From a virus, in IMG/VR virus record IMGVR_UViG_3300028888_000123: 64,000 nt of DNA, one strand, 5' to 3'. Numbering within the stretch: the first letter of the stretch is position 1; each line of letters opens with the position of its first letter. Both the position numbers and the translations under genes were made by a program. Positions 719-38,506 of the stretch are shown here, one piece after another. Under the pieces are notes generated by a model. The model ran no database searches. It was not told the DNA's origin and was given only the letters and a program-made list of their open reading frames with translations.

Positions 719-812
719 GGAGAGATGTCAGAGTGGATGAATGTGGCGGCTTGCTAAGCCGTTAACCGGATGAGAAGCCGGTTCGTAGGTTCGAATCCTA
801 CTCTCTCCGCCA
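719..812 (+). tRNA. tRNA-Ser (anticodon GCU), type II with long variable arm, CCA encoded.
   Basis: GGAGAGA...TCTCTCC acceptor, anticodon loop TTGCTAA, variable arm AACCGGATGAGAAGCCGGTT, T-arm GTAGG-TTCGAAT-CCTAC, then G and CCA. Confidence 0.8.
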
Positions 813-813
813 T

Positions 814-890
814 AGGAGATTAGCTCAGATGGTTAGAGCACTTGTCTGATATGCAAGGTGTCACTGGTTCGATTCCAGTATCTCCTACCA
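814..890 (+). tRNA. tRNA-Ile (anticodon GAU), CCA encoded.
   Basis: AGGAGAT/ATCTCCT acceptor, D-stem GCTC/GAGC, anticodon stem CTTGT/GCAAG with loop CTGATAT, T-arm ACTGG-TTCGATT-CCAGT, then A and CCA. Confidence 0.8.
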
Positions 891-893
891 AAT

Positions 894-967
894 GTCCCCA
901 TAGCTCAATTGGATAGAGCGATAGCCTTCTAAGCTATAGGTTCTAGGTTCGATTCCTAGTGGGGATA
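894..967 (+). tRNA. tRNA-Arg (anticodon UCU).
   Basis: GTCCCCA/TGGGGAT acceptor, D-stem GCTC/GAGC, anticodon stem ATAGC/GCTAT with loop CTTCTAA, T-arm CTAGG-TTCGATT-CCTAG. Confidence 0.8.
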
Positions 968-993
968 GGTTTTAGTTGAAAAATATAGAAAAG

Positions 994-3177
994 ATGAGAA
1001 CATTATTGTTATTTAGATGAGCACCTTGATGTGGAAAGTCTACCTTCATAAAGGAGAATTGACTAGAACCATACACTTTATGTGCAGATACTTTTAGAAT
1101 GCTGTATTCTTCTCCTACATTATATGTAAATGGAGAGGTACATATTCCACAGAATGTGAATGCAGTAGCTTGGGATAATCTATTCTCTACCCTAGAATAT
1201 AGAATGCAGAATGGAGAGTTCACAGTTATCGATGCTACAAACTCTAAAACTGTGGAGATGAATAAATATAAGAAACTAGCTGATGAATATAGATATAGAC
1301 TTTATATTGTTGATATGACAGACATCCCTATCGATGAAGTAAAGAGAAGAAATAAACTTAGACCAGAATGGAAATGGGTACCAGAAGAAGCTATAGATAA
1401 TATGTATGCTAGATTCACAACGCAAAAAGTTCCTAGCTGAATTAAGGTTATTAAACCAGAAGAGGTGGTTGACTTATTAAGATGGAGAGCTGTAGAAATT
1501 CCTGATACATATAAAGAGGTAGTACACATAGGAGATATTCATTGATGTTATGAAACATTAATGTCTGCTCTACCTAATGGTATTGAAGAAGATAAGTTCT
1601 ACATATTCCTATGAGATTACTACGAAAGAGGGCCAGAGAATGTAAAATGCCTAGACTTTATGGAAAGCATAATTGATTTACCTAATGTTGTATGTTTGGA
1701 GTGAAATCACGAAACTCATTTATGGACTTATGGTATAGGAAAAATCCCTAGAAGTAAACACTTTATGGGGTATACAGTGAATGAATTAATCGAATGAGGA
1801 TGGGATGCTAAAAGAATGAGAATCTTTATGAAGAAACTTTTGCAGTGCTACTACTATACCTTCAAAGGTAAAACTGTTCTATGTACTCACTGAGGAATAA
1901 GTAATTCTAATTTCGATGAACTATTCCCATTAGGATTAACTTGTATCGCTACAATGGATTTAATTCATTGAGTGGGTAGCTATAATGATACAGCTGAATG
2001 TGATACTAACTTTGCTAAAGGAAACATAATTCAGATACACTGACACAGGAATATAGAAGATAAACAAATAGAATGAATTGCTAACCTAGAATGATGAGTT
2101 GAATGGTGAAAGGAATTGAGAGTTGCTGTGTTGGGTGATGAATTAGAAGTAGTTAAGTATCCATACAAAGATAGAATACCTTCTAAGGAAGAATTCTTCT
2201 GAATAAAACAGGATGTAACCGTTAAACAATTCATTGAAAGCTTGAGAAAGAATAGATATATCAACGAAAAAAATGTGCAGTGAAACATAAGTAGCTTTAA
2301 CTTTACTAGATGAGCATTTAGTAGAAGTCACTGGGATAGAGAAACAGTTAAAGCAAGGGGGCTATTTATAAACACTAACACATATAAAATAGTTGCTAGA
2401 GCCTACAATAAGTTCTTTAATATAGACGAACAAAAGAGTACAATGTTATTTAGTATAGGACAAAATGCTCACTTCCCTATCGTTGGGTACAAGAAATATA
2501 ACGGATATCTATGAATAATAGGATACGATGAAGAAAGCGATGAGTTAGTATTCACAAGTAAATCTGAAGTGGGTTGACCTCACGCTCAACGACTTAAAGA
2601 AATAGTTATAGAGAAAGGTATCAACTTAGAAAAAGTAAAAGACTATTTAAAGGAGAACCTTTGCTCGTTAGTCTTTGAGGTTATAGACCCTGTAAATGAT
2701 GCACATATTATTAAGTATACTGAAAGAGATGTTATATTGTTAGACTGTGTAAAGAATACTATCAACTTTGAGAAACTAGACTACGATAGTTTATTAAAGC
2801 TATGAGAACTACTTTGATTCACAGTAAAAGAAAAGTTAGTAGAGTTAAAAGATATGGTGGAGTTGAGAGAATGTATTGACGAATTACTAAATCCTAATTC
2901 AGAGTACAATACTTGAACTCCTATTGAATGAATGGTGTTTGTTGACAAAGATGACTTTATGTTTAAACAGAAGTGAGAGTATTATCAGCAATGGAAGAAA
3001 CTTAGAGCTTTGATTTGAGTAGTAGCAAGATGACAAAACTTTGTTCATACTTGAATGTTAACAAACCCAGAGATGAATGAGTTCTATTGATGGTTAAAGG
3101 AACAGACTTTAACTTGAGAAGAAAACATTATAGAGCTTAGAGATAAGTTCTATGCTAACAAAGCTATGATTAGCTAA
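994..3177 (+). CDS. pnkp: Trifunctional RNA repair enzyme with kinase, phosphatase and ligase domains. The N-terminal domain is a P-loop polynucleotide kinase, the central domain a lambda-phosphatase-type metallophosphoesterase, and the C-terminal domain an Rnl-type RNA ligase. About 727 aa with TGA read as Gly.
   Basis: P-loop FRGAPGCGKST spans two TGA codons (1018-1050). GDIHGCY (lambda PPase GDLHGCY) and LEGNHE span further TGA codons. Ligase motifs KxNG (VGYKKYNGY), FEVID, EGMVFVD and FKQKG are present. Only TGA interrupts the frame, up to TAA at 3175. Confidence 0.75.
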
Positions 3178-3306
3178 CATAGGGAGTCGTCCACCTCGGC
3201 ACGGACGGATAATGTGGGGTATCACACTGTAAATATTAGCTTTAGTATTAGTAATGCGAAGTACAAACATTATGAGTAGTAAGGTTAATATGATATATCT
3301 CCCTTC

Positions 3307-3377
3307 GGCAGGGTAGCTCAGGGGCAGAGCAATGCCGTTTAGGGCATATGTCGTGGGTTCGAGTCCCACCCTTGTCG
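3307..3377 (+). tRNA. tRNA with a 6-nt anticodon loop (GTTTAG) between a perfect 5-bp stem ATGCC/GGCAT. The central TTT/TTA suggests a Lys(UUU) derivative or UUA; isotype undetermined.
   Basis: Acceptor GGCAGGG/CCTTGTC (two GU pairs), TA, D-arm GCTC-AGGGGCA-GAGC, T-arm GTGGG-TTCGAGT-CCCAC. Confidence 0.5.
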
Positions 3378-3384
3378 AGGGGAG

Positions 3385-3472
3385 TTTGAAAAATGTGTAA
3401 AATGGGTATCAAAATACCTTGAAAAATGTGTAAAATGTATACAAATTTATATTGAAAAATGTGAAACTAATG
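3385..3472 (+). repeat. Three tandem copies (period about 33 bp) of TTGAAAAATGTGTAAAATG; promoter-like (TTGAAA ... TAAAAT).
   Basis: Copies at 3385-3404, 3418-3437 and 3451-3472 (degenerate), directly upstream of the first early small gene. Confidence 0.6.
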
Positions 3473-3865
3473 GACAAGCTTATTAGATTTATAAATGAAT
3501 ATGGGCACACAAGTAGTTGTTGACCATTCGAAACTTATAGAATAGAGCCAGCGACAGACTGGATTTCTTCATATTTAGTATTGAGCCGAGATGATAATTG
3601 AGAGTGAGATTGGAAAGATTGGCATTTGCCAGTTCCAAGATTAATTAGTAAAGAATATGGTTTCATAAAACGACTTGTTGATAATGATAAGATAGACAAG
3701 AAAAAAATAGATACAAGGCTGGTTAAAAGCGTGGAAAGTCATTACGATGTAGACTGATGGTGGGTTGAAAATTCATACGAGGATTATTCAGATATAGATA
3801 CTTTGCTAATGCTACTATCAATATCAGATACACCTATTGATTTATTATGTAACCTGTTAAAATAA
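3470..3865 (+). CDS. Hypothetical small protein, family A; paralog of 6755..7102.
   Basis: Read through 4 TGA codons. Shares GFIKRLVDNDKIDK and LLMLLSISDTPIDLL motifs with the 6755 gene. Confidence 0.45.
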
Positions 3866-3866
3866 A

Positions 3867-4076
3867 ATGAGAGTGGCAACGTTAATTAAAAAGTTAGAAA
3901 ATTTTCCAAAAGAGTGGGAAGTATTCTATAAAGATGGAGAAGACTTAATAGAGATACTCTGATGTAATCAGGGTATTGAATATTATGAAGAGTGAGACGA
4001 AAGAAGAAAGCCAGTAATAGACGAAGAATGAAATAAGAGTTATCCATATTGAAGAAGGGTGGTTACTTTAAGTTAG
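3867..4076 (+). CDS. Hypothetical small protein (about 69 aa).
   Basis: ATG 1 nt after the previous stop; frame open with TGA as Gly. Confidence 0.35.
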
Positions 4077-4101
4077 TTTTATATCTTAAGTAAAAATCTG
4101 A

Positions 4102-4344
4102 ATGACTGATAAAGAAAAGAAAGAACTGCTTGATATAATTGAAACACAAAAAATATATCTAAAAGCAGATAAGGAATTTATTGAGGGACAAAGAAATTAT
4201 ATAAAATCATTAGAGCAGAAATTAGAGAAAGACAAATTTGGTTTGCGATATGCTACCTTTGTATATGGTGGGTTAATATGATGATGTATTTATATATTAG
4301 AGAAATCAATACAATGATGGATAGAAATTATTAGTTGGTTTTAA
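4102..4344 (+). CDS. Hypothetical small protein (80 aa), lysine-rich coiled-coil N-terminus.
   Basis: Frame verified codon by codon to TAA 4342-4344, which is the TAA of the first TAATCAG unit. Confidence 0.45.
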
Positions 4345-4373
4345 TCAGATTTATTTACTTAATTTAATAACCT

Positions 4374-4601
4374 ATGGAAACTATAAAGGAAGAAAGAGAA
4401 AGCTGAATGGAACGAAAAGCACATAATTATTCCTTAGAGTATAAGAATTGGAGATTTACGCTAACCGAAAGCGAGAGATGAGATTGTTTCTTTGTAAATA
4501 TATACTACAAAGATAATAGCTGTTCAATGTTTGTACATACAGGTACAAAAACAGCAGAAGAAGCTAAAGAGCGAGTTGAAGATTTTATCAAAACAGAATT
4601 A
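4374..4601 (+). CDS. Hypothetical small protein (75 aa).
   Basis: ATG lies in the conserved CCTATGG context after the intergenic unit; codons counted to TAA 4599-4601. Confidence 0.45.
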
Positions 4602-4634
4602 AAATAATCAGATTTATATTATTACTTTATACCT

Positions 4635-5021
4635 ATGGGAAACAAATTAGAACAGCTATTGAATAGCTTGATAGAGAAAGGGTATATACCATTTAATATA
4701 CCTTGTATTACAAATGTTAGTTTTTTAAGAAGATTATGGATAACATCACATCAGAATGACAGAGATTATAAATTTGATTTCTCTTTAAGGGACTTAGTAA
4801 GTAAAGAAAGCTGACTATGGCAATTCGTGTGTGAGAATGGATTATTGAATGTAAACAAAAAATATGAATGGGAATATTGGACACAAAGTTATAAACAAGA
4901 TTGAGAAGAATATACACACGAATTTAGTAGATGGTGTGAGAAATACCGACTAATAGAAAGTGCCTTATGTGATGAAGATAAGTTAGAGGAGTTTTTACTC
5001 AATTCAATTAAGTTAGACTAA
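4635..5021 (+). CDS. Hypothetical small protein (128 aa).
   Basis: CCTATGG start; three TGA codons read as Gly; stop TAA 5019-5021 lies inside the next TAATCAG unit. Confidence 0.45.
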
Positions 5022-5051
5022 TCAGACTTTTATATTATTTACCTAAAGGAA

Positions 5052-5252
5052 ATGGGAAAAGAAAAATCTGAATGAAAATATAGGATAATAGAAGTAATAG
5101 ATACTGCTATAAATCAGAGAGTATATATTCCACAAAAGAAGAATTGGCTTTGAATTTGGAGAGATATAAGCTATTGAAAATTTCTTTTAGAAAGTGCAGA
5201 AGATGATATTAGAAAAGATAAATGAGAGTTTAAGATAGTTAAATATATGTAA
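5052..5252 (+). CDS. Hypothetical small protein (66 aa).
   Basis: Start after the intergenic unit; stop TAA is part of TAATCAG. Confidence 0.4.
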
Positions 5253-5280
5253 TCAGACTTTTATATTTTATTTATAACCT

Positions 5281-5481
5281 ATGTATCGTATTCTTAAAAC
5301 ACCTAATTGAAAATATAAAGTACAGAAAAAAGATTGGCTTATAGTAAGTTATCGAAGAACTATTGAATATTATGACCCAGAAGCAGAAGCACGTTTAACT
5401 AGATTATTTGACACAAAGAAAGAAGCAGGGGAACGAATAGATAGAGATAGGGGATGAAAAATAATTAAAGAATATTACTAA
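5281..5481 (+). CDS. Hypothetical small protein (66 aa).
   Basis: CCTATG start; stop in TAATCAG. Confidence 0.4.
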
Positions 5482-5513
5482 TCAGACTTTTATATTTATA
5501 ATTTATTATAACT

Positions 5514-5768
5514 ATGGAGAAAAAACTATCAACTTCATCTGCGGAAATATATTGTTGAAAGCCTATGAAAGAATGGCTTGATGAGTGGGAATGACACTAT
5601 ATAACAGTGTGAGAACTTATAGATGAGCTATGAAAATTTGACAAAGACTTAAAAGTTTTAGTTAGGCGTACTTCTGAATTCACCGATGAAGCAGATGCTA
5701 ACCCATATATTGATTTGATGCGTTGAAGATTAAGAGGGACTAATGAAGATATCTTGCTTATCAATTAA
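5514..5768 (+). CDS. Hypothetical small protein (84 aa).
   Basis: Start after the intergenic unit; frame open with TGA as Gly. Confidence 0.4.
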
Positions 5769-5786
5769 TATTTTATATTATTAGCT

Positions 5787-5984
5787 ATGGAGATGTGAAA
5801 AATAGAAATCTATGAGGACTGTAAACAGATAAGTCAGTTTGAATATCTACGACCTATTATATTTGTCCTCATTATTATAATAACTTTAGTGATGTGATAT
5901 TTATGTAGTATAGCATATGAGCAACACGTTTGAGAGCCAACCAAAGATAGTTGTATAGAATACTTTACTAAATATTCAAAGTAA
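5787..5984 (+). CDS. Small membrane protein (65 aa, one TM segment).
   Basis: Hydrophobic stretch IIFVLIIIITLVM; stop in TAATCAG. Confidence 0.4.
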
Positions 5985-6007
5985 TCAGACTTTTATATTA
6001 TTTACCT

Positions 6008-6253
6008 ATGGAGAGAATGACATTTTATATACCACCTGTATTCTTATTTGGGAATAATGCTAATAGAGTTCCTCACGATGAAGAAAAGAAATCTGAATAT
6101 AAGACAGCAGCTGAAACTGAAATTAAAGTAGAGAATTGGATGGCAAAAAGAATAGCTGAATTAGAAGAAGAAAATAAAAAGCTGAAAGAAGAAAATGAGA
6201 AACTTAGAATTGATAGAGAGTTTGAAAAATGAAATACAATATTTGGTATGTAA
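6008..6253 (+). CDS. Hypothetical coiled-coil small protein (81 aa).
   Basis: ORF track 6008..6232 extended through one TGA to the TAA inside TAATCAG. Confidence 0.45.
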
Positions 6254-32396: not shown

Positions 32397-35300
32397 TTAA
32401 CTTTGTTTAATAAAATAAATTTTTCCAGCAACAGGATTACTTACTTGTGAGTATTCCGATGCTGTCATTACCGTAGCAGTAGTCACATCTCCAGTCTGTC
32501 CATTCACACTAAGTACTCCTGTGTTTGTTATTGTATTTCAATCTCATCATATCCAAGTTCATTGAGTTTCTCATCACCGGAGATTATCATTATGAACACT
32601 ACTCCAATCGTATGGGGTACTATTCCCAATTATGAATGTATCGCTTTCATAATATCAATTAGCTGTGTTTGGTCAATAATTTGAAGCATCTACTTGTGTA
32701 CTAGAAGTTGTAATACTTCAAGTCCAAGCGAATCAATAATTATTACCCCATTGATAATATTTACCACAATTAGCTTCGCTTAATGTATCTCAATTATTAT
32801 ATACTGTAGTTGCTCATAAGTTTTTATCCATAATAGTATATCCTGTCGTTCAGTCTGTAATAGAAATTAATCATTCAGTTTGATTCCAGAATATTCAAGC
32901 ACTTCATAATGTTCCATTTATTACAGCCCAAGAAGATGTAGGTAGCTCAAATGAATCCTTGAAACAACGAACGGAGAACCCGAAAACACGGAAGTGGTTA
33001 TTATCCACGAATACGCTGGACGAATCCAGGTAGATGTGACGGGCGTTAATCGTGCTGCCAGACACATAAGGAGAAGACGACCAATAGCGACCGATGGAAC
33101 CCTGGTCGTTGGGGCTAGCAGAGTTGTAACGACGGCCACCAGCGAACGGCATATGCAAATTTATTCTCCAGTCATCTCAAGAAGTAGTTAAACCTAATCA
33201 ATCCATTATAGTTTTAAGTCATTGCCATTCTGTTGTTAAAGGTACGTGAAATCCATCTGGTGCAGGTCACTGCATATCTGAATGTGTAGCTCATATAGTT
33301 ATTCATTCTCAAGCGTTATATTCTTTTCAAGCAACTACTACATCTCCATACTGTCAGTTTACACTTGTGACAGGTATGTTTGCTTCTACTCCATTCTTTA
33401 TGGTTTTAGTAATGTAATTTGTCATTATACTGTTTTGTAAATAATATAAAGGTTTCAATCTGAACTAGCTCACGATATGTTGTTATATTCAGTTTGAGTT
33501 ACTAATTTTCACGTTTCTAAATTCACTGTACTAGCACTACTCTGATTAGCTGTAAATGTTCATTTGCTAGTTCATCATTGATTTATTGTCAGAGTTCAGT
33601 TATTTACTGTTGGAATAGTTAATGTGACAGCTCAAGTCTGCCCATTTACACTACTAACAGGAGCGTGCGTTTTTATTGCTCACTTTAATACTGATGCAGA
33701 TATACTCCTTGCTGATGTAGATGTTCAAGTTGTAGCTTCACTTGCACTCATTGCTGAGTATGTTGTATTACTATCTGTAAATAGATGTAATGCTCATCAG
33801 CTTTCATATTTAGTAGTATATTGGAATTGCCTTGTATTAGCCTTAGTAAAATATGAGTGTCCTGCTAATGCAGTGGTAGTTCACATTACAGGGATATAAG
33901 CTCAATTTCAGATTTTTACTCTTACATTTCTATTTGCACTTGCCACTACCATTTCTGTATCTACTACAAATGTATAGATAGCTCATTCTCTCCATTCTAT
34001 TCCTGCGCTAGCACTAATGTCTATGTTAGTATATCCATAAGAAGTATTATAAGGTGCTACTCATTTAGTATCATCTGTACTTACTGTTACATCTGCCTCA
34101 GTAATGATAAATACATTATTAGCACTTATTACATTACTAGAGATTTTGATATTTTCTCCAGCTATTAGAGTATCTTGTTTAGTACTATCGTGATAAGCAT
34201 TTGTAATATATCAAGCATCATTATTTAAAGTAGAAACATTATCTCAAGGTTGTACTGCTGTAGCACCTGCACTTGCTCCACTTCTTATCGTAGCTAAGTC
34301 TGATATAGTATCCTGCTTTCAAGCTATAGTCGTATCCATAGCAGCAATTTTATCATAGACTGCATTTTTGGAAGGGGCTATTGTTGTTACTCAGTTCCAA
34401 GAAGAAGCATATGCTATATCTGAGATTTGACTTGGATAAGTAACATCTACCTCTGTAATTCAAGTTACCTGTCATAATGAGTTCGTTGTTATCTGTGGAA
34501 CCTTTGTTGCACTTCACTTACTTGTATAAGCTGTTTGTGTTGCTAAGGCATTTTGTTTTCAATTCCAAGTAGATTTCTCAGAAGAGGTTACAAATAAGTT
34601 TGTACTTCATTGAGTAATATTATCTGAAGTATTTGTTGTTTTATTAAAGTAATTTGTTAAGTCTACTGAAGTGTCTCATATTTTTACCCAAGTCGAATTA
34701 GCGTAAACATATTCTTCATATTTATCTGCCCCGCTTCAAGTAGGTCAAAGCAAATAAATTACATTTGTTTTTATATCAGTTGTAGGTAATGTTGCTACAA
34801 TTTCAAATCATTGAAAATTTTGTACTAAAGCATTTACTTCTGCTTGTGTATATGTCTCAGTCTTTTTATAGTAATTAGTTAGATTATTTACTGCGTTCGT
34901 GATAAATCAGCTATCATTCGTTAAGTCTGAAACCTTTGTAGGAATTGCTGAACTATCAGCTTTGCTTGCTATAGTTGTATCCATAGCAGATATCTTATCA
35001 TACATAGCATTCTTTGAAGGAGCAATACCTGTCACACCATTCCAACTTGCAGCATAAGCTTCATCACTTACAGCTCAACTTGTAGCAGCAGAGATATTAT
35101 CATCTACATATTTCTTTGTAGCAGGATGATAACTTCAAGTAGGAGTAAACTCTATTGTATTTGTTTTAGTTAATACTTCTGTTTTATCAGCTTTTCAACT
35201 TATATCTGGCTGTTGAATAGTTACCTCTGTAATTCAAGTTACCTGTCATAAACTGTTAGTTGTAATTTGTGGGACTTTAGTTGCACTTCATTTAGATGTA

Positions 35301-38300
35301 TAAGCTGTTTGTGTAGCTAAAGTATCTTGTTTTGTGCTATCGTGATATGAACTTGTAACGTATCCACTATCATTTGTTAATTCTGAAATCTTTGTAGGTA
35401 TCGCTGAGCTATCTGCTTTACCTGCAATAGTTGTATCCATAGCAGATATTTTATCATATACCGCATTCTTAGAAGGAGCATTATCTGTAACTCAGTTCCA
35501 ACTACTACCATATGCACTATCTGAAACTTGATTAGTATCTATATTTCAGCTTCAAAGTATTGAAGTAGAATTAATTGTTTTAATAGTTGTACCACTTACT
35601 AAAGCATCCTGTTTTCAGCTCCAAGTATTACGTAAACTTGTGCTATCAGACAAATCTTTAATATCAAAGTCACTTGCTACATAAGTTGTATCTGTTGCAC
35701 TAATAGTTCAATCGTTAGCTATTTGGATATTACTTCAAGCAGTTAATGCTTTTTGTTTATTATTAAATGTATTCCAATCTGTTGAAGTAAGATATCCACT
35801 AGCAGAAGATGATGCAGCTCAAAGCTTGCTCTGGATTGTAGCTTTAGTTTCATCCCCAGAGTTAGTTCCACTTGTATTACTTAACTTAGTACGTTCTGCA
35901 CTTGTTAAGAATAAATGTGTACTTCACTCCGTGATAACATCACTTGTGTCGGAGTTCTTATTAAAGTAAGGAGACAAATCTATAGATGTATCTCATATCT
36001 TAATCCAAGTATTATTTGAATAGATATATTCTTCATATTTATCTGCTCAAGTTCCAACAGGTCAAAGCAAGTAGATTACAGTAGTCTTAATATCTGTAGT
36101 AGGCAACGTAGCTACAACATCAAATCAAGAGAAATTAGCAACATAATCAGCTACTTCAGCTTTTGTATAAACTTCACTCTTAGTATAGTAATTTGTTAAA
36201 TCACTTACTGCTTTAGTAATGAAGCCAGCATCATTTGTAAGAGTTGATACATTATCTCAAGGCTGAACGGCTGTTGCTCATTTACTAGCTCAACTACGTA
36301 TAGTGGACAAGTCACTAATCGTGGCTTGTTTACCAGCTATAGTTGTATCCATAGCATTAAGCTTATCATACACAGCATTCTTTGAAGGAGCTATTCCTGT
36401 AACTCAATCCCAAGAGCTTCAATATGCAGTATCACTTACAGCTCAAGCTGTCGCCTCTTGTACTTGTGTATCTACATAGGATTTAATTACTTTATTCTGT
36501 ACCCCTTTAGTAGATGTGCTAGACATAGCTGTATCTAATGTAGGAATATCTGCACTTGTGATATAACCAGCATCATTTGTTAATTCACTAACATTATCAT
36601 TAGGTTGAATAGCTGTAGAGGCGTTACTTCTAATTGTAGCTAAATCTGAAATAGCATTCTGTTTAGCATCCCAAGAAGCTCTCTTTCCTGTAGAGTCTGC
36701 TAAGTCTTTAATATCAAAGTCTGAAGCTGTATATTTAGTATCTGTTGCACTAATCGTGTCACCTGATATTTGGATATTAGCCCCAGCTGTAAGAGTATTT
36801 TGTTTATCACCTAAAGCTGACTGTAAGTCTGTTTGGTCTGTAATATCTCATTGGATATTTCACCATTCAGCTGATGTCTGTGTATTACTTATAACTCAGT
36901 TAGTAATATCTATTCAAGTACCTGCTGTATAAGTTGTATCTGTAGCAGAGATTGTTCCATCTTGAGCAATCTGTATATTTGCTCAAGCCGTGAGAGCGTC
37001 TTGTTTATTATCTAAAGCCGACTGTAAATCTGTTTGATTACTTAAAGTTCATTCAATACTTCACCAAGTTGCTTTATTATCGTTAGCAGAGATAACATTA
37101 TTAGCAGATATACTAATACCAGGTCAAGCAGAATAGGTTGTGTCTGTTGCAGAGATAGTCTTTCAATCTGCAGCGATTTGGATATTATTTCAAGCAATTA
37201 ATTTCTCTTGCTTGTCATCACCTATATCAGATATCTCTCATTGGATAGTTGATATGTCTCATTGGATAGATGTCACATCTCATTGGAGATTCGTTATATT
37301 AGTTTCTGCTGTAGAGACACGTGTACCTAGAGAAGATATATTACCTGCATTAGTAGAAATGTCTGTTTGAGCCTGAGCTACATCTCCTTGTAAAGATGTA
37401 ATATCTGCTTTAGCTGTAGCCATATCAGACTGTAAATCTGTTACATCTTCTACTACAGAAGCAGGAGCATATTCACTTGCATTATGTGTAACTATGTCTC
37501 CATAGGTAGCAATCTCATCAGAAGCATCCTTTCAAGCTTGAGCATTACTTCTAATTGTTTCCAAATCAGAAATAGCTGGTTGCTTATCATTAAACTTATT
37601 CCAATCACTAGCTGTGAGATACCCATTCGTAGTTGAAGAAGCTGCTCAGAGTTTAGACATAATAGAAGCATTTGTCTCATCTCAAGTATTCGTTCACGAA
37701 GTCATAGATAACTTCGTTCTCTCACTCGCATTTAAAAATAAATGCGATTCTCATTCGGTAATATCATCGCTCGTTCCAGTTAGGTCATCTAAACTATCTG
37801 GGATATCTGGAATGTTGTCTAAGTCATTAAAGTCATTTGTTTTACCAACAACGGATATATCTGCATCGTTAGCTTTTAGATTTAATGCTGCTGTAACAAC
37901 TCTATTCTCTACTGGATTTGTGCTAGTAGTAGATAAACTTTCATCAATAGGAATTTGTCTATCTGTATTGAGTAACAATTCCCAAGTGGCTCAGTTGAAG
38001 AAATAGAAATCTCATACCTTTACTTCCTCAGTCTCTAAATCTGTAGAAGGAATTCATCTATATGAAGCTCATTCTGGACGATAATTTGTAGCTCATACTT
38101 TACCTACAATATAATAATCTCAGCTATGATACTCATAAGGAAGAGTTGTAGGATTGGATGTAGGCATTCAAGTAGTGGAGTCCCAATTAGAAAGGAACTT
38201 ACCTAATCCCTCAAGGTTCTTAATTCTATTATAAAGTACCCTACCTTGCTTAGCAGATAGAGCATTAGTGGATGAAATACTATCGAGATTATCTTCCACC

Positions 38301-38506
38301 TCAGGGATAGCTAGACTAACAACTCTATATTGGTCAGGCTCAACCACTTGTCAGTTTACTTTAATTCCCTGAATGGCATTTTTCTCAGCACTTGGTTCTA
38401 TGCTATCAAGCTTTTCTATCACTTCTTGTGTAAGAGAAAACTCAGTAGCCTTCTTGTCTACATAATCTCAATCAGCTAGGTATCTTATACGTGCTGCTTT
38501 TGACAT
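32397..38506 (-). CDS. Giant tail fibre (about 2035 aa) with an N-terminal anchor domain, at least five internal repeats of about 150 aa, and a C-terminal FISUMP-like domain followed by a second partial copy.
   Basis: ATG (CAT) at 38504-38506. Repeat core APSKNAVYDKISAMDTTIAGKADS recurs at about 34300, 34990, 35440 and 36350 on the + strand. GGRRYNSASPNDQGSIGRYWSSSPYVSGST...FGFSVRCFKDS (ORF track 32904..33158) sits in a GC-rich island. Stop TAA 32397-32399. Confidence 0.5.

Follow-up and report, generated by a model that had tools for sequence, protein, structure and literature searches.

A 727-residue kinase-phosphatase-ligase encoded in the tRNA array of a code-25 phage: a candidate single-chain tRNA repair enzyme

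The established precedent for RNA repair by a phage is that of T4, in which a polynucleotide kinase-phosphatase (Pnkp) and an RNA ligase (Rnl1), two separate proteins, act against restriction by PrrC; the phosphatase of T4 Pnkp is of the DxDxT/HAD type (PMC3592404). In Clostridium thermocellum, Pnkp (CthPnkp) carries its own ligase, which is of the Rnl4 type and Hen1-dependent (PMC6379707), and the wild-type enzyme heals tRNA ends that can then be sealed by T4 Rnl1 (PMC1920235). A third arrangement is that of the tRNA splicing enzyme Trl1, which runs in the order ligase, kinase and cyclic phosphodiesterase (CPD), the last of these being a 2H enzyme. Its ligase is of the Rnl6 type, a clade defined by a helical C-terminal domain appended to the nucleotidyltransferase (NTase) module and treated in the literature as fungal/kinetoplastid (PMC6379707). 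Comparative genomics has also established that phage ATP-dependent RNA ligases act with polynucleotide kinase and occasionally with a calcineurin-like phosphatase (PMC7824862, PMC9503650). The gene considered here lies at positions 994-3177 of a 64,000-nucleotide viral sequence (IMG/VR record IMGVR_UViG_3300028888_000123), hereafter the window, meaning the whole stretch of DNA that was analysed. The reading favoured for it, to which a probability of roughly 0.8 is assigned, is that a code-25 phage here encodes, in one polypeptide, a 'heal-and-seal' RNA repair enzyme that would mend cleaved tRNA.

Reading frame and genetic code

Straight translation of the frame meets 30 in-frame TGA codons and one terminal TAA, and it opens into 727 codons when TGA is taken as sense. 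The standard bacterial code is ruled out for this interval by those 30 stops, and the longest open reading frame (ORF) piece that translation table 11 leaves within it is 113 amino acids (aa). The ATG start agrees with the N-termini of homologues (MRxLLLFRGAPGCGKST). From base composition, the probability of 727 codons without TAA or TAG is about 2e-18, and the longest such run across 200 shuffles was 237 codons. Similarly, in the window as a whole, ORFs of 100 aa or more, summed across the six frames, amount to 12.8 kb with TGA as a stop and to 75.5 kb with TGA as sense, and 91% of the sequence is covered by a simple code-25 gene call. In an alignment with 17 homologues from standard-code organisms (45-50% identity), the 30 TGA positions hold glycine in 303 of 510 cells and tryptophan in none, while TGG positions pair mostly with tryptophan and GGN positions with glycine. 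Because glycine predominates and tryptophan is absent at these positions, the alignment indicates that this phage reads TGA as glycine, that is, that it uses genetic code 25. The 727-codon gene is real, and only under that code. TGA as tryptophan (code 4) is ruled out by the lack of any tryptophan at homologous positions, and the use of TAA or TAG as extra sense codons, an idea raised by odd tRNA loops, finds no support in the ORF statistics.

TGA-encoded glycines are found in the Walker A loop, in GDIHG, GDxxxRG and GNHE, and in the EG motif of the ligase, and together they give a clean, motif-level demonstration of the TGA-as-glycine reading in this phage. An earlier interpretation made from the letters of the DNA (the sequence-only reading) had placed a 727-aa product with the correct domain order at exactly these coordinates, but had left unstated that the frame is open only in code 25. 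That code was nevertheless used implicitly, since the EGMVFVD and FKQKG motifs and the Walker A glycines that it relied on contain TGA-encoded glycine.

The nearest database proteins (P0001-P0016, 68-94% identity) carry tryptophan at TGA positions where a conserved glycine is expected. These residues are an artefact of code-4 gene calling, a systematic annotation error for code-25 phages, and the mistranslated closest relatives sit in public protein sets. Separately, the N-terminus of P0006 is over-extended into a tRNA gene (locus L007, start at 6001, with tRNA-Arg at 5978-6053). The tRNA array at this same locus, from a close relative, also includes a tRNA with anticodon UCA (5584-5660; labelled 'SeC' by ARAGORN). 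A tRNA of this kind would be expected to decode UGA as glycine, and therefore some phages of the clade carry their own recoding tRNA. The tRNA scan of the window itself returned no tRNA with a UCA anticodon.

Domains and relationship to known repair enzymes

Separate profile searches, which the sequence-only reading had proposed as a check, matched all three domains: Pfam AAA_33 at aa 4-142 (E = 1.7e-14), Metallophos at aa 176-355 (E = 3.9e-18) and RNA_lig_T4_1 (PF09511) at aa 453-664 (E = 3.9e-36, above the family cutoff). The first has all the features of a polynucleotide kinase, namely Walker A (G9-T17), a general-base Asp with Arg at +3, and lid arginines; K15, S16, D32 and R35 align to CthPnk K21, S22, D38 and R41, and, with R119 and R123, to T4 Pnk K15, S16, D35, R38, R122 and R126. 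In the second, GDIHG, GDYYERG, GNHE, H299 and H351 match the metal and phosphate ligands of lambda phosphatase and CthPnkp, which places it among the binuclear metallophosphoesterases. The third contains motifs I, III, IV and V of the covalent nucleotidyltransferase RNA ligases (K501-Y-N-G, E562, E645-G646, K658 and K660). In alignments, K501 falls on the lysine of motif I in Trl1 (mutated in the K148M crystal structure, PDB 6n0t, which reads MENG at this point) and on K99 of T4 Rnl1, and thus the adenylatable lysine on which the ligase assignment had been staked is in place. The catalytic residues of all three domains are invariant in a 23-homologue alignment; in one of 97 sequences a few of them, namely S16, R119 and the first lysine of motif V, fall slightly short of this (at least 90%). 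On these sequence matches, the single chain is predicted to combine a P-loop polynucleotide kinase, a lambda/calcineurin-type binuclear metallophosphatase and an ATP-dependent RNA ligase (Table 1).

For this chain, enzymatic activities, an action on tRNA and a role in counter-defence are proposed by analogy with T4 Pnkp and Rnl1 against PrrC and with CthPnkp. Repair would proceed in three steps. The N-terminal kinase would phosphorylate the 5'-OH (K15, S16, D32, R35), and the central phosphoesterase, of the Mn/Ni type, would open the cyclic phosphate and then remove the phosphate (D181, H183, D208, N238, H239, H299, H351). The C-terminal ligase would then be adenylylated on K501, pass AMP to the 5'-PO4 and seal the break.

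Table 1. Position, strand and diagnostic details of the repair gene, its domains, the flanking tRNA genes and other proteins of the window
Feature	Position	Strand	Details
Kinase-phosphatase-ligase gene, 727 aa	994..3177	+	ATG at 994, stop TAA at 3175-3177, code 25
Polynucleotide 5'-kinase domain, aa 1-150	994..1443	+	Walker A GAPGCGKST 1018-1044; K15 1036-1038, S16; D32 1087-1089; R35 1096-1098; lid R119, R123
Binuclear metallophosphoesterase (putative 2',3'-phosphatase) domain, aa ~160-395	1471..2178	+	GDIHG (D181, H183), GDYYERG (D208, R212), GNHE (N238, H239), H299, GH (H351)
RNA ligase adenylyltransferase (NTase) module, aa ~405-664	2206..2985	+	Motif I K501-Y-N-G (AAA 2494-2496), III E562, H571 (2704-2706), IV E645-G646, V K658, K660
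Ligase helical C-terminal domain, Trl1/Rnl6-like, aa 665-727	2986..3174	+	K668 (2995-2997), R671 (3004-3006), counterparts of CthLIG R334, R337
Odd tRNA, 8-nt anticodon loop	487-561	+	Loop UAGCGAAG between stems CUAGC/GCUAG; ARAGORN 4-base anticodon 'gcga'; Rfam 53.7 bits
tRNA-Ser-GCT	719-812	+	ARAGORN, Rfam
tRNA-Ile-GAT	814-890	+	ARAGORN, Rfam
tRNA-Arg-TCT	893-968	+	ARAGORN, Rfam; array ends 25 nt before the repair gene ATG
tRNA-like gene, clean cloverleaf	3306-3378	+	6-nt anticodon loop GUUUAG; ARAGORN, Rfam
Giant protein, 1693 aa, highly repetitive, tail-fibre-like	33425-38506	-	Repeats such as 'SDxAYGSSWxGVTxIAPSKNAVYDKIxAMDTTIAGK'
Giant protein, 2939 aa	50038-58857	-	
Terminase-like protein, 586 aa	62239-63999		Truncated by window end; no PHROG match

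The fold was examined by proxy, through an AlphaFold2 (AF2) model of P0018, a 49%-identical family member, built with the 97-sequence alignment. The model has a mean pLDDT of 92.5. Structural comparison scored it at 30.6 against the Trl1 ligase (Trl1-LIG 6n0t; 316 positions, 2.6 Å) and 25.7 against T4 Rnl1 (247 positions), with Foldseek TM values of 0.66-0.71 and about 0.55, respectively. For the healing half, the scores were 23.7 against the CthPnkp phosphatase (4j6o; 221 positions), 14.8 against the CthPnk kinase (4gp6; 151 positions, 1.8 Å) and 12.0 against T4 Pnk (133 positions). The profile of the ligase domain, compared with the PDB, likewise found Trl1-LIG over its whole length, including the C-terminal helical domain (E = 1.9e-26), and T4 Rnl1 over the NTase core alone (E = 2.6e-9), the T4 Rnl1 alignment ending at motif V (residue 247 of 374). 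Two equivalog models were rejected: the one for T4 Rnl1/RnlA (NCBIfam TIGR02308) reached 42 bits against a cutoff of 242, with no match to the Rnl1-specific C-terminal domain, and the one for bacterial Pnkp (NCBIfam TIGR04075, bacter_Pnkp) reached 75 bits against a cutoff of 750, with only residues 4-304 placed on profile positions 10-325 of 851.

Because Trl1-LIG outscores T4 Rnl1 in both profile and structure, and bacter_Pnkp matches the healing half only, the enzyme is a mosaic of a bacterial-Pnkp-type healing half and a Trl1-LIG (Rnl6)-type sealing half. The kinase and metallophosphatase are closest to bacterial Pnkp from C. thermocellum, and the helical C-terminal domain that marks the Rnl6 clade is present in the ligase. 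As the sealing half is of the Trl1-LIG type, a Hen1 activator should not be needed. The sequence-only reading thus holds for the presence of a P-loop kinase, a metallophosphatase and an ATP-dependent RNA ligase, but not for its comparison with T4, since the healing half is of the bacterial Pnkp type and the ligase is like Trl1/Rnl6 rather than T4 Rnl1 in profile, structure and alignment.

The protein differs from each of its described counterparts. The T4 enzymes are two proteins where this is one chain, the T4 Pnkp phosphatase is HAD-type where this is a metallophosphatase, and the C-terminal domain of T4 Rnl1 is unrelated to that of the window ligase. In comparison to C. thermocellum Pnkp, the window protein is about 140 aa shorter, the bacter_Pnkp model covers its healing half alone, and its ligase belongs to the Trl1/Rnl1 superfamily, the Rnl4 contrast being drawn from the literature only. 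Relative to Trl1, the order is kinase, metallophosphatase and ligase, the 2H phosphodiesterase is replaced by a metallophosphatase, and the C-terminal domain of the P0018 model has three predicted helices instead of five.

The resemblance to Trl1 may extend to the ligands of a 2'-phosphate. In Trl1, a His nine residues past the motif III Glu and two Arg just past motif V (CthLIG H227, R334 and R337) are the ligands of the 2'-PO4 preferred by the ligase (PMC11404444, PMC12440814). In the window ligase, H571 stands exactly nine residues past E562, and K668 and R671 align to CthLIG R334 and R337, a Lys thus replacing the first Arg of the triad. All three residues are invariant in the 97 homologues, whereas in T4 Rnl1 an Ile replaces the His and KxxR is lacking. 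If they function as in Trl1, then a yeast-type route would be possible, in which a Trl1-like ligase prefers or requires 3'-OH,2'-PO4 ends, the metallophosphatase supplies the 2'-PO4 intermediate, and the junction 2'-PO4 is later removed by a host or phage Tpt1/KptA with NAD+. This route is unlikely, although several observations agree with it: the ligase is Trl1-like through its C-terminal domain, the three residues stand at the positions of experimentally defined 2'-PO4 ligands, a 2'-phosphomonoester is an intermediate of CthPnkp healing (PMC1920235), and the homologues in Herelleviridae lie near the NAD salvage genes for nicotinamide phosphoribosyltransferase (NAMPT) and phosphoribosyl pyrophosphate (PRPP) synthetase.

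Against the yeast-type route, the histidine of GDxHG is kept (H183), and it is the loss of this residue (H189D) that makes CthPnkp a 2'-PO4-producing diesterase (PMC1920235). Tpt1/KptA was not found among the 47 other window proteins or within 10 kb on the contigs of six relatives. Additionally, the phages with KptA (98 records: Erwinia, Dickeya, Klebsiella, Serratia, Clostridioides and others) and those with the fused enzyme (140 records: Staphylococcus, Lactobacillus, Brochothrix, SPbeta-like, Fusobacterium and others) appear disjoint, as judged by genus and named record rather than by formal intersection of accessions; just the genus Bacillus is common to both sets, and its named records differ. 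The triad is itself altered by the Lys in the window protein, and it is an imperfect predictor, as plant tRNA ligase needs 2'-PO4 without these arginines (PMC12440814). It is put forward only as an unlikely proposal that the family ligase is a bacterial-world Trl1 (Rnl6) ligase, which would use a 2'-phosphate pocket to seal 3'-OH,2'-PO4 ends passed on by the fused phosphoesterase. If this were true, phage RNA repair would create 2'-PO4 junctions in bacteria and so be the missing source of substrate for bacterial Tpt1/KptA, and the fungal tRNA ligase could plausibly have evolved from that of phages. More generally, yeast-type 2'-PO4 ligation in bacteria or phages would bear on the unexplained presence of Tpt1/KptA in bacteria.

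Comparison with databases showed that the enzyme is not unusual. The protein aligns along its whole length with the PHROG 8238 profile ('RNA ligase'; residues 1-723 against positions 1-733 of 737, E = 1e-208, 696 bits), and this family is very common, with more than 4,900 database matches. Homologues covering at least 80% of the query occur in 113 phage records, at 36-40% identity over 99% of the length; full-length examples come from Staphylococcus Twort/K-like phages, Brochothrix A9, SPbeta-like phages and Fusobacterium phages, as well as from thousands of metagenomic proteins. GenBank labels the fused proteins as RNA ligase, polynucleotide kinase or Ser/Thr phosphatase. The Herelleviridae 'RNA ligase' proteins (Brochothrix A9 gp147, Staphylococcus Twort/K-like) and the SPbeta-like Goe11 protein of PHROG 8238 share the three domains of the window protein and its invariant catalytic residues. 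The gene is therefore a routine member of a widespread, catalogued phage family and not a new invention. The window copy differs from those of Herelleviridae in being written in code 25, with 30 TGA-Gly codons, and in lying inside a tRNA array and not in a replication or NAD-salvage block; its host lineage would be among candidate-phyla bacteria, whereas the PHROG 8238 relatives belong to phages of Firmicutes. What the window copy adds is the code-25 setting, the conserved embedding in a tRNA array, and a family-wide Trl1-like ligase with a conserved putative 2'-phosphate pocket. By sequence, then, a family that includes therapeutic Staphylococcus phages appears to join a bacterial-Pnkp healing module to a Trl1-type ligase that retains 2'-phosphate-binding residues.

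tRNA genes and genomic neighbourhood

Phage tRNA genes flank the repair gene on both sides, as had been noted from the sequence: four lie upstream (487-968 on the plus strand, with Rfam tRNA scores of 52-72 bits) and one downstream (3306-3378). The repair gene is probably co-transcribed with the phage tRNA array. This arrangement is conserved in close relatives, as tRNA genes adjoin the repair gene at six of six loci in the code-25 clade (the window and five relative loci, from three proteins of 68-91% identity). For instance, Ile-GAT and Arg-TCT are directly upstream of the repair gene in L003, L004 and L007, and tRNAs are found on both sides of it in L005 and L006. In contrast, none of ten loci outside the clade (Brochothrix A9, Staphylococcus phage, Bacillus and other genomes) has a tRNA within 4-6 kb. 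Therefore, the tRNA embedding is clade-specific; it favours, without proving, a role related to tRNA in this phage, and it would fit the upkeep of an intact tRNA pool during infection.

Several points weigh against tRNA repair as the function of this enzyme, beginning with the ten loci just given. Only one of three metagenomic loci has tRNAs within 10 kb, at 6-9 kb, and relatives outside the clade place the gene in blocks for replication or nucleotide metabolism. To our knowledge, no anticodon nuclease is documented for Gracilibacteria or Absconditabacteria, and the host is placed by genetic code alone. No biochemical study of the fused family was found in the literature searched, a scope that leaves outside it the 2016 RNA-repair survey of Burroughs and Aravind, which may list the architecture. 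The sequence-only reading had gone further and taken the flanking tRNA genes to imply a tRNA-cleaving defence in the host; the data do not show this, and tRNA adjacency supports a link to tRNA in the code-25 clade only and is absent in other family members. The more restrained statement is that RNA-repair counter-measures appear to reach phages of candidate-phyla bacteria, and that a gene locked into a tRNA array hints at tRNA-directed immunity in hosts with almost unexplored defences.

The placement in replication blocks also bears on whether the kinase-phosphatase instead heals 5'-OH/3'-PO4 ends of DNA in replication or repair, with the ligase secondary. In several relatives the gene lies within replication or nucleotide modules (DNA polymerase, SSB, UvsX, DnaB, NAD-dependent DNA ligase, RNR), as in L024, where the homologue is inside a replication block, and DNA ends are phosphorylated in vitro by CthPnk and T4 Pnk (PMC3902929, PMC2831316). 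The invariant fusion to a ligase of the Rnl1/Trl1 RNA ligase superfamily points to RNA, however, and the RNA-ligase motifs and C-terminal domain are strictly conserved, so that DNA end healing is a very improbable function. In Herelleviridae (L001, Brochothrix A9, 3418-5834; L002, Staphylococcus phage S24, 1571-3966), the homologue is a few genes downstream of PRPP synthetase and NAMPT, an NAD+ salvage pair. These neighbours may form a shared counter-defence neighbourhood. They might also point to RNA repair that depends on NAD+, although the family and phage KptA do not occur together.

Abnormal anticodon loops are found in two of the five flanking tRNA genes. The tRNA at 487-561, for which no homologue was found in relatives L003-L007, might decode a quadruplet or suppress frameshifts, or the gene may be defective. 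For the tRNA-like gene at 3306-3378, a homologous RNA is present in L007 (8390-8462), where the repair protein is 91% identical; its stems are kept by compensatory changes, its loop (GGCUAUA) is non-canonical and lacks U33, and it scores 31.6 bits with no call by ARAGORN. The nearest canonical relative of this gene is the tRNA-Leu(UAG) in L005, and it could itself be a suppressor, an anticodon-nuclease decoy or a decaying tRNA. Such odd neighbours, the tight embedding in the tRNA array in the code-25 clade and the splicing of tRNA by Trl1, structurally the closest relative, are all consistent with a housekeeping role, in which the enzyme would mature or recycle the tRNAs and tRNA-like RNAs of the phage itself (joining processed halves or repairing odd tRNAs), or would mend RNA damage by phage nucleases. 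Such a role is nonetheless improbable: the flanking tRNA genes have no intron or split structure according to ARAGORN and Rfam, most family members are away from tRNA genes, and the phage precedent is one of restriction and repair.

Two further tRNA-like fragments on the plus strand are uncalled by ARAGORN and Rfam. One, at about 640-715, has a T-arm (GTAGG-TGCAAAT-CCTAC) and an imperfect acceptor; the other, within 1-110, was flagged in the terminator scan and has a T-arm (CTGGG-TTCGATT-CCCAG) at 81-97. Both may have been left behind by a larger or an older array of tRNA genes.

In agreement with the sequence-only reading, no Hen1-like partner was found: Hen1, Tpt1/KptA, RlaP and other partners are absent from the 47 other window proteins and from the flanks of relatives. 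Similarly, there is no methyltransferase among those 47 proteins and none adjoining the gene in relatives, the nearest being DNA methylases more than 4 kb away in L025. Scans around the gene for the sigma-70 promoter and intrinsic terminator consensus gave nothing above chance. After the tRNA-like gene at 3306-3378 and ahead of the next ORF, which starts at 3470, TTGAAAAATGTG(T/A)AAA occurs in three exact copies spaced 33 bp apart (3386-3463, plus strand), and a copy with two mismatches lies at 976-987, just ahead of the repair gene ATG. As a window-wide signal, TTGAAAAATGTG is not enriched (19 found against 16 expected), and just the local triple copy stands out. The triple repeat might serve the early-gene block as a tandem promoter or operator.

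The phage and its presumed host

Code 25 is used by Gracilibacteria and Absconditabacteria and by many of their phages (PMC10746230), and code-25 phages of this kind are presumed to infect one or the other. The CRISPR systems described for these bacteria are of type III-A in Gracilibacteria and type V-A in Absconditabacteria (PMC10746230). A search of 185,579 species-representative genomes returned no close relative of the window; the only matches, of about 40%, were to prophage-like regions of Bacillus, and code-25 bacteria gave none. The 586, 497 and 768 aa proteins that neighbour the giant proteins have no PHROG match. The window is a highly divergent tailed phage. Its small plus-strand genes form one block and its very large minus-strand genes (2939, 1693 and 993 aa) form another, and its phage-type matches are a portal/adaptor (weak), a holin, a C39-like peptidase and an SPFH protein.

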